Origin: Promethearchaeota archaeon
GTDB lineage: Archaea; Asgardarchaeota; Lokiarchaeia; Sigyniarchaeales; SOKP01
Length of the DNA: 64,000 nt
Direction: 5' to 3'
NCBI GenBank assembly: GCA_019058245.1
Contig: JAHPZJ010000028.1
Coordinates: 64,001-128,000 of the forward strand
The notes below the pieces were generated by a model. That model saw only the letters and a program-made list of their open reading frames with translations, did not search any database and was not told the DNA's origin. The translations under genes and the position numbers were made by a program. Below are positions 40,779-43,190 of this stretch, one piece after another. The stretch's first letter is position 1. The number at the start of each line of letters is the position of its first letter.

Positions 40779-43190
40779 TTAGGTTCTACAAAGTCTTTTT
40801 AAAAGAGTTGGATCTATTATCTCTTTTGGTTTCCATCCCTTCTCTTTTAGATATGCCATTATCTCATCTTTCATATTAATAGGAATATCCGCTTCCAGAC
40901 GGACAAATTTCTCTAAATCATTAGGAAATTCAACACCCTTATATTTTCTCTCTAAATCGATCCAATGAGATAATTTTATCATTCGTCCTTTAGAATTATC
41001 TGCAGGTCTTAAAGCTAATTTGGCGACTAAACAGATAGCTTGTTCTATACTTTCCGCGGTTGTTAATAGATGTTCAGGTCCAGGTCCCACTAGATGATCG
41101 GCTGTTCCATCTCGAGCATTGAATACTTTCCAAACATCTTCATCATCGGAGCGTCCAATATACATTCTTCTATATTCCGCGGCATGAGGGCCACAAACAG
41201 CTGGTACACCTAAACCATTTGCCATACTTGCAATACTTGCAGCTTTTTGAGACATAGCACCCCATGCAACACCAACTGCTCCAACTCTGTTTAAAACATA
41301 GTCAGCTATTTCTTCAAAATTACCACGTAATGGTCTTCGGGCGAAGATATTAGCAACTTTAATTGCAGCTCCAGTAATATGAGGATTACTTACGCAACTT
41401 CCTACATTTACTAAACCGCCTCTATCAAAATCACCCGGAAATCTATCATATAATGTTTTTCCATCTTCATCCTTTACAAGGCCAATATCCATTGCTCCAC
41501 AGCCTGAAACTACAACTATATAATTTCTTGTTAGAAATTCTTCAGCCATTTTATATAGTTCTTGAATTTCATGAGCATAACTCGCACATCCAATTATTGC
41601 AACAATTCCAGGGATTTCTCCTAAGACAATAGGGGCACCTACATTCCTAATTTCGGTGTCCATAATAGGTCCACGCCCTACTCTACAGTTGAATTTCTCA
41701 TTTCTAATCTGTTCTCTAGCGGCATATTGTAATAAAGTTAAAGGAGATACACCTTTCATACAGTCTCCTTCACATCGTCCACATCCCAAACACTCATCGA
41801 ATGCTCCTGCTAATACTGAGAAATCCCCATCTTTAGCTAATTTTACTCCTTCCACAAGTGGTAAATCATTTGGACAATTTCTTTGACAATTTCCACAGCC
41901 ATTACAATTCATCGCCATATCAATGCAACCTTGTTCATCAGGAACTCCACTTTTTGCTTTTCTAATTGGTTTGACTTTTATTGCAGTTTCAGCTGCTACT
42001 GCACCAGCTTTTATTGGATCTAAAATAAGGACACCGGGTTCCTTTCCACTTACTAAATCATCAACAATTTCATTGATAGGATCAGTGGTTCTATCAGGTA
42101 AACCGCTCATATTCTTTTCATTTGTAGCAATAAATGGAGCTCCAATCAACTGGGCTTGCTCAAATGATCTTAGATTTACACATTGTTCATCAACCATTAC
42201 TACATCTGGAAATCCCGATCGAATCACATGAAGCTGTCTTGACATTGATCCCACAATCTTAGCACCATCATAGTATCTCGTTAAATCATGGGCAGTACAA
42301 CAAATTGCTCCAACATCTACCTTTTCATCTATACCTTTTTCTCTTATATAATCAACTAATTCGACTCCAGGGGCAACGTTATGTCCAATCATCAAAATAA
42401 CTGCCTTACTCGTATCTAATGTTCCCATACCAAGTTCTACAATAGGAACATTAGGATCTCCCATAGGAAATCCGTACGCGGCAATTTGAACAGCATCAGA
42501 AATTTCCATACCTACAGAATCTGCTAATCCTGCTAAAAAGCTTTTTGATTCATAATCTAAATAAGAACTCTCTTGTCCTGTATGTCCCGCCGCTAATAAG
42601 TGTGTTATTGTAAAATGCACCCACTCCATAGCGGTTTCTAAATCTTCTAGGGTTTCAGGTTTCATACCGACAACTAATCTTGTGTGAGGCATCTCAACGG
42701 CTATATTATTCCCAAAATTAATTGGTACATTGCCATACTTTTCTTTTAACCAATGTAATAGATGATCTCCGTGGGCAGAATGGCACGCAGCGCCTATACA
42801 GCAGGCAATCTCTACTATCCGACTCTGTTGTGTCTCCATATTGATCCCGCATGCACCTGTTCGCCCCTTGGAAAGATTACATTTCCCATATGTGCATAAA
42901 CAGCACATATCACATTTGTCGTATATGCACAGATCAATTGTGCATATATATCGGCATGTAAAAAGGTTTGTATCTTTCCATCATTTTGAAAAACCAATTG
43001 CGTAGGGTTGGAATATGGGGCATAGGATTTTACCCTTGAGAAGTCATGCTTCAATCAAGTGAGGTCCCATAGGCTCCCATTCCGTCTCATCTCCGAAAGA
43101 AACTTTACCAGTAGTAAGTTCGAATCCTTTAATCGTTCCGAGAGGACCTTTATATTCATCTATTTTAACTTTAGCTCCTCTTTTTTCCAT
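40779..43190 (-). CDS. cdhA: CO dehydrogenase/acetyl-CoA synthase alpha subunit, predicted 3 exons (43190-43061, 43028-42950, 42915-40779), 781 aa spliced
   Basis: Spliced N-terminus MEKRG...WEPMGPHPMPHIPTLRNW...[32 protein letters not shown], DEQC, two CxxCxxCxxxC, GSCVSN, WGAMSQKA. Protein identity is secure; exon structure is inferred. Confidence 0.93.
42916..42949 (-). other. Putative 34-nt BHB-type mRNA intron 2 in cdhA
   Basis: 10-bp hairpin UAUAUGCACA/UGUGCAUAUA, bulges AU|A and AA|A around GCCG:CGAC; removal restores the frame (MP-I-CDMCC). Confidence 0.8.
43029..43060 (-). other. Putative 32-nt BHB-type mRNA intron 1 in cdhA
   Basis: Hairpin CUUGA(UU)GAAG/CUUCUCAAG, bulges UC|A and AA|A around GACC:GGUA; removal restores the frame (MGP-H-PMP). 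Confidence 0.78.

Follow-up and report, generated by a model that had tools for sequence, protein, structure and literature searches.

A short insert in the cdhA gene of a Lokiarchaeia archaeon is a probable tRNA-type intron of a messenger RNA

We analyzed a 64,000-nucleotide (nt) stretch of a Promethearchaeota archaeon genome (class Lokiarchaeia; contig JAHPZJ010000028.1, positions 64,001 to 128,000; hereafter the window), in which the minus-strand gene cdhA is interrupted by two inserts, referred to here as intron 1 and intron 2. The fit of intact orthologues around the inserts, the predicted structure of intron 1 and the behavior of comparable inserts in relatives make it very probable that intron 1 is a tRNA-type intron of the cdhA messenger RNA (mRNA), which would be excised by the tRNA splicing endonuclease EndA and rejoined by the ligase RtcB.

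Both inserts are precise additions to an otherwise intact gene. Alignment with orthologues leaves exactly 32 extra nt at 43060-43029 and exactly 34 at 42949-42916, and the approximately 120 intact cdhA copies listed from 161 genomes of the class continue in one frame across the insert sites. The solved CdhA structure 8RIU aligns without a gap over both junctions, and removal of both inserts gives a CdhA open reading frame (ORF) of 781 amino acids (aa). Where it could be estimated (exon 1 against four intact relatives), the ratio of nonsynonymous to synonymous substitution rates (dN/dS) in the exons was 0.02–0.04; the spliced CdhA is under purifying selection, with a dN/dS of about 0.02 in each of its three exons. 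At all 22 insert-bearing loci the spliced gene is open to the gene end or to the end of the available sequence, and no further lesion was found in any carrier. The 3.09-Mb assembly (76% complete, 29% GC) has a single cdhA match and encodes intact cdhB and cdhC elsewhere. Its matches to the CdhD family are partial only.

Intron 1 is composed of one bulge nucleotide, a 25-nt hairpin, the 4-nt intron strand of a central helix and two further bulge nucleotides (Table 1). The hairpin strands are CUUGA (43059-43055), a UU bulge, GAAG (43052-43049), the loop CAUGA (43048-43044), CUUC and UCAAG (43039-43035). An initial annotation of this DNA had described the insert as a relaxed bulge-helix-bulge (BHB) motif on the minus strand, and we found every element in the place it had been given. 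The 5+4-base pair (bp) stem with its UU bulge was reproduced by folding the intron alone (−6.6 kcal/mol, 84% of the ensemble, z −2.2), and the sequence agrees with a central helix of three out of four pairs with a G·A mismatch. The UGA assigned to the loop (43046-43044) indeed closes the unspliced exon-1 frame as a 48-aa ORF (43190-43044). Removal at 43061/43060 and 43029/43028 had been said to restore the frame, and all seven alleles at this site share the boundary and recover the orthologue peptide. The canonical BHB has a 4-bp central helix, which is present in two other same-site alleles and reduced in intron 1 to three pairs and the G·A. What intron 1 does have are the relaxed features: three central pairs, two 3-nt bulges containing the junctions and flanking helices with a minimum of 2 bp. 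Its inner helix is 5 bp and its exon helix 2 bp in register, with the junctions after the second bulge base. Intron 1 is a BHB of the relaxed class only and, judged by this geometry, a predicted member of the EndA-spliced introns.

Table 1. Features of the interrupted cdhA gene and the EndA gene in the window (a slash within a bulge marks the predicted cut)
Feature	Position	Strand	Remarks
cdhA exon 1	43061..43190	-	130 nt, ATG at 43190; aligned with intact orthologues
Exon-1 arm of 13-bp exon-exon duplex	43065..43080	-	ViennaRNA fold, comparison of carriers
Central helix, exon strand GACC	43063..43066	-	From sequence; two C-G pairs kept in 7 of 7 same-site alleles
5′ bulge UC/A	43060..43062	-	Predicted cut 43061/43060, cut rule per PMC2738675
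Intron 1	43029..43060	-	32 nt; without counterpart in orthologues; BHB register
Intron 1 hairpin	43035..43059	-	5+4 bp, 2-nt bulge, 5-nt loop
In-frame UGA	43044..43046	-	Terminates 48-aa unspliced product
Central helix, intron strand GGUA	43031..43034	-	G·A at outer position
3′ bulge AA/A	43028..43030	-	Predicted cut 43029/43028
cdhA exon 2	42950..43028	-	79 nt
Exon-2 arm of exon-exon duplex	43015..43027	-	ViennaRNA fold, comparison of carriers
Intron 2	42916..42949	-	34 nt, hairpin of 10 bp; central helix 3/4, but 4/4 in two relatives
cdhA exon 3	40779..42915	-	TIGR00314 cdhA, 986 bits, profile positions 63-761 only; dN/dS 0.021-0.026
EndA catalytic (alpha) subunit with insert resembling the Crenarchaea-specific loop	61950..62543	+	A. 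pernix EndA alignment; probable trans-acting enzyme

Taken alone, a central helix in which three out of four pairs form is weak evidence and does not go beyond chance, so we gathered homology-defined inserts from relatives and metagenomes. This gave 30 distinct cdhA inserts of 29–34 nt at seven sites, with boundaries set by homology; because inserts at the same site are related, counts over the 30 are not independent trials. At the exact boundary, all 30 passed a stricter BHB rule (15 in canonical form), compared with null means of 10.6 for host swaps, 4.8 for random positions and 0.9 for shuffles, and a maximum of 16 in 300 replicates. Central pairs formed at 105 of 120 positions, compared with 28–54 when the partner strand was slid by 1–3 nt, and the intron tetramer tracks the exon tetramer from site to site across the seven sites. 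Additionally, the first base of the 3′ bulge is A in every insert. The length is not a multiple of three in 24 inserts, and each of the remaining six holds a stop. At the intron-1 site, all seven alleles have a BHB at the identical boundary, with both C-G pairs invariant and an outer pair that is G·A in four alleles and G-U in three.

A stop lies inside the intron in each of these seven alleles. Only in the window allele does the hairpin loop contain the stop codon in full; the others have it at the loop edge, in a stem or at the 3′ end. The loop position of the stop is incidental. Over the full set, stops fall in the reading frame in 26 of 30 inserts, the counts for the two alternative frames being 14 and 20, and an early stop in the insert may be favored. 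Two 30-nt, frame-preserving alleles at the intron-1 site (L157 and L158) use the A of the G·A mismatch in their sole in-frame stop, and a G-U version of either would be read through. We speculate that this use of the A may be why the mismatch was retained. All seven sites are within the first quarter of cdhA (codons 43-170), five of them within or adjoining Cys/His motifs, and in about 50 genes no cdhA intron was seen further downstream. One further cdhA copy (L046, genome G022), which has a site-F intron and, close to its 5′ end, what looks like a rearrangement or an unrelated insertion, was excluded from the insert statistics.

The exons on either side of the insert also pair with each other. 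The initial annotation had proposed an exon-exon pairing that could compete with the central helix; six of its seven pairs form with probabilities (P) of 0.75–0.99 in ViennaRNA (the terminal U-G at about 0.01), and the predicted duplex extends to 13 bp. This duplex averaged −15.6 kcal/mol in carriers compared with −8.9 in intronless genes, and at 59 control positions in the same genes the difference was −0.3 ± 0.8 kcal/mol. It is stronger in carriers at all seven sites, significantly so at six, and almost every carrier has a stronger duplex than its closest relatives without an intron. The gain stems from synonymous changes at paired positions, in codons near the junction and not further out. 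We infer that the duplex, whether selected for or inherited along with the intron, may serve as an outer scaffold that keeps the junctions together, a role that fits better than that of a conserved on/off switch.

The enzymes that such splicing would require are encoded in the genome. The catalytic subunit of EndA aligns with A. pernix EndA at an E value of 4e-35, including the Tyr/His/Lys region, and has Lys/Arg in its loop resembling the Crenarchaea-specific loop (CSL). Lys and Arg positions in the CSL are associated with broad EndA specificity (PMC3241643), and the encoded enzyme may likewise be broadly specific. A second EndA subunit and RtcB are also present in the genome. The gene for the catalytic subunit lies on the cdhA contig, about 19 kb from cdhA. 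The tRNA-Gly of this genome contains a 31-nt hairpin intron at 37/38. ARAGORN finds only 19 tRNAs in the genome; many of them have odd introns, as would fit tRNA genes that are heavily interrupted. No Rfam model, those of group I and II introns included, matched within 42700-43500 at E values up to 1. At 32 nt, intron 1 is far below ribozyme size.

Similar inserts occur in other genes. We compared the genome with 2 Mb from a congeneric one by frameshift-aware alignment, without use of any motif and with about 1,100 orthologue pairs in each direction; by design, this comparison is blind to introns common to both genomes, such as that in mevalonate kinase, and to genes beyond the 2 Mb. It returned four well-aligned inserts of at least 15 nt with a broken frame or a stop, and all four are BHB-shaped: the two in cdhA, one of 31 nt in a response regulator and, reciprocally, one of 53 nt in the congeneric gyrB. 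The gyrB insert (near G006:C1:2955100, plus strand) exceeds the usual 29–34 nt; its central helix is 4/4, and it contains a pair of inner hairpins. Inserts in ahcY, mevalonate kinase and an ABC ATPase of the window genome likewise match the register, with local restoration of the frame on removal, bringing the count for this genome to at least six such inserts in five genes, which is a lower bound. The mevalonate kinase insert occupies the same site in both genomes (G000:C15:8315, plus strand; G006:C1 near 435300, minus strand), with a diverged hairpin. De novo genome scans for a BHB with frame restoration gave no excess over length-shifted controls (for example, 52 versus 40-48) and overlooked the cdhA introns; they were used neither as evidence nor for a genome-wide count.

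The hairpin of intron 1 points to an origin within cdhA itself. Its 25 nt are unlike the six other introns at the same site (best p 0.05) and align with introns 98 nt downstream in other species, two of which score at 2-7 per 20,000 hairpin-preserving shuffles. For five of the six downstream-site introns p is below 0.025, and the match survives correction for 29 comparisons. These alignments suggest copying between sites of one gene, the likelier source of intron 1 being the site 98 nt downstream. A second cross-site pair, the site-D intron of L027 and the site-C intron of L042, scores as high and is possibly another copying event. No donor copy was found elsewhere in the genome (best 22 of 32 positions, ungapped). 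The G·A could be taken for a remnant of the donor site, a notion weakened by three other same-site alleles that carry the same G·A but have unrelated hairpins.

Movement of the surrounding DNA is also indicated. The intronless cdhA of the sister genome is the closest match in every segment after intron 2 and ranks 6th-19th before it, while synonymous divergence from the sister gene is 0.40 in exon 3 versus 1.6 or more in exons 1 and 2. This loss of rank and jump in divergence at intron 2 point to an exchange of the 5′ cdhA segment in either the window or the sister genome. Carriers are scattered over the gene tree, and site-A introns are patchy, with about 120 genes lacking one. A single origin of same-site introns is unsupported on the whole-gene tree (6 changes, clustering no greater than in shuffles), a tree which is limited by recombination. 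Two sister cdhA genes, L043 and L018, lie far from the window cdhA on the tree, yet what distinguishes them from each other is an intron almost the same as intron 2 of the window, which points to transfer between lineages. By a narrow balance of judgment, we favor the broader view that introns of approximately 30 nt are mobile in the mRNAs of these Asgard archaea. A set of ordinary mRNAs would then be spliced by the tRNA endonuclease and ligase, the introns being copied within genes and spread by recombination while synonymous exon positions adapt.

The course of splicing that we propose was pieced together from sequence comparison. In the transcript, the 13-bp exon-exon duplex and the intron hairpin would draw both junctions together. 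The short central helix between them is probably transient, or formed on enzyme binding, because the protein-free ensemble favors a slipped form. The two-subunit EndA would cleave after the second bulge base at both predicted cuts, RtcB would ligate the exons and intron 2 would be removed likewise, giving the 781-aa CdhA; unspliced RNA would yield the 48-aa peptide. Intron 1 itself is most likely a tolerated mobile passenger, probably a copy of the intron from the downstream site, and such introns may spread between lineages with flanking DNA. The codons of the surrounding exons would have adjusted, or been co-inherited, to allow the pairing.

Several points weigh against this account. In the central helix, intron 1 has just three pairs out of four, and in the window allele these reach P of only 0.03-0.2, while a slipped register reaches about 0.9 (10–37 °C). 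The full BHB lies 5.5–6 kcal/mol above the computed minimum; a hybrid fold, in which three central pairs form, the 5′ bulge is free and the 3′ bulge has 5 nt, is only 1–1.5 kcal/mol above it. Additionally, one study found barely any cutting by His-tagged A. pernix EndA at one junction of a cbf5 substrate of the bulge-helix-loop (BHL) type (PMC3241643), so a relaxed motif need not make a good substrate. The claim of copying relies on 25-nt alignments that were chosen after inspection by eye, among the 29 comparisons.

The slipped register raises the question of regulation. The exon-exon helix might gate splicing of the same intron, the slipped form blocking EndA until a shift in temperature, translation or ligand; this would add to EndA/RtcB splicing and is compatible with it. 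The balance of pairing in the window allele is what a gate would need, and the early stop, in frame in most inserts, would turn splicing into on/off control. The competition foreseen in the initial annotation therefore exists on paper in this allele, where the exon-exon helix outcompetes the central helix. The other six same-site alleles do not retain the register of this helix (P 0-0.5), however, and the central helix dominates the computed ensemble in three of the seven. Pairing probabilities hardly change from 10 to 37 °C, the greater duplex strength of carriers at every site is what a scaffold would give, and the site-A introns are patchy on the tree and missing from about 120 genes. A switch of this kind is possible but unsupported, and we regard it as unlikely.

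A second alternative is that the inserts are never spliced, so that cdhA is inactivated or a shortened protein starts at an internal Met in exon 3. A 709-aa ORF does begin at 42908, a second cdhA copy could be missing from an assembly of this completeness, and the CdhD matches are incomplete. In such a protein 72 residues would be missing, among them the first Cys of the CxxCC motif; the solved CdhA has them all. The low dN/dS of exons 1 and 2 and the freedom of spliced carrier genes from other lesions also argue against it, and dead genes give no reason for the BHB register and exon-dependent pairing to last. We consider this very unlikely. Precise removal from the DNA itself, or through some nuclease that is not EndA, is in keeping with the patchy presence of the introns and the mosaic gene, both of which reveal movement of DNA. 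The alignments have no apparent terminal repeats or shared target duplication, however, and the geometry matches EndA substrates, making such removal highly improbable.

We give hardly any credence to a ribosome hop over the insert without RNA cleavage, as in translational bypassing of the T4 gene 60 type. The insert is short, its stop lies within a hairpin and a CCT codon occurs on either side of intron 1, but a CCT-to-CCT hop would delete two conserved residues and the pre-stop codon, GCA, has no matching landing codon. A length-neutral matched codon occurs in none of the 30 inserts and any gene-60-like match in five, and bypassing leaves the fixed register of 1+stem+4+2 unexplained. Selenocysteine read-through of the UGA was rejected, since the frame remains shifted and soon stops again.

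The closest known counterpart of an EndA-spliced cdhA intron is the BHB intron in cbf5 pre-mRNA of Desulfurococcales and Sulfolobales (Watanabe 2002; Yokobori 2009, PMC2738675), also a short intron within coding sequence. Like intron 1, it has an unconventional BHB with cuts predicted to follow the second base of the bulge, and the EndA concerned is hetero-oligomeric. It differs in occupying one ancestral site in one gene and in that its splicing has been demonstrated, whereas that of the cdhA introns is predicted. Unlike cbf5, cdhA has two introns in one metabolic gene and seven sites over relatives, with a patchy distribution, signs of copying and recombination and several other affected genes in the genome. 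The non-canonical tRNA introns of Asgard archaea (PMC11291895; bioRxiv 10.64898/2026.10.13.758758) belong to the same lineage group as the cdhA introns and also have BHB boundaries, a history of repeated gains and a two-subunit EndA; the tRNA-Gly intron of the window genome matches the cdhA introns in size and likewise has a hairpin. Those papers concern tRNA genes only and found no general route of arrival, whereas the cdhA host is an mRNA and its intron 1 has an identifiable relative at another site; the term 'mRNA' appears nowhere in the text of the preprint (bioRxiv 10.64898/2026.10.13.758758).

Other systems are more distant. Thermoproteales tRNAs carry similar introns at different positions, which Fujishima 2010, as described in PMC4090602, read as transposition to BHB-compatible sites; by that account the process is large-scale and in tRNA genes, whereas cdhA offers one case, in a protein-coding gene and across species rather than within one genome. 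The BHB intron in the 5′ untranslated region (UTR) of Haloferax volcanii HVO_1309 (PMC7714728) likewise involves EndA processing of mRNA at BHB sites, but it is 46 nt long and involves no reading frame. In eukaryotic HAC1/XBP1 mRNA splicing (PMC4090602), removal of a short insert also shifts the frame and a tRNA ligase rejoins the exons. There, IRE1 cuts stem-loops under stress control rather than EndA at a BHB, a functional likeness in a different family. According to a 2020 paper, cbf5 was the only archaeal mRNA BHB intron apart from that paper's own 5′ UTR case (PMC7714728). Our literature search, whose coverage left out most subscription journals, found no paper on Asgard mRNA introns, and within the literature searched, archaeal splicing inside a coding sequence is published for one gene, cbf5. 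Looking for ligands of the CdhA clusters likewise gave no result.

Two small GTPase genes of the Rag/Arf-like type, at 38684-39892 (plus strand) and 43424-44422 (minus strand), lie on either side of the cdhA region. Together with a vWA-RING gene, these neighbors suggest an Asgard archaeon. Rag/Arf-like small GTPases are typical eukaryote-like Asgard proteins.

If the introns are spliced as proposed, two splicing events would be needed for an enzyme central to the Wood-Ljungdahl pathway in prokaryotes closely related to eukaryotes, and annotation pipelines would split or truncate such genes. The window allele offers a natural test of the limits of a relaxed motif, since its central helix has a G·A and the slipped exon-exon helix dominates. 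The resemblance of intron 1 to introns of the downstream site, together with the recombination breakpoint at intron 2, gives a testable lead on how these introns arrive, which the 2026 preprint left open. Intron 1 would then be a traceable case of intron copying between two sites of one prokaryotic protein-coding gene.
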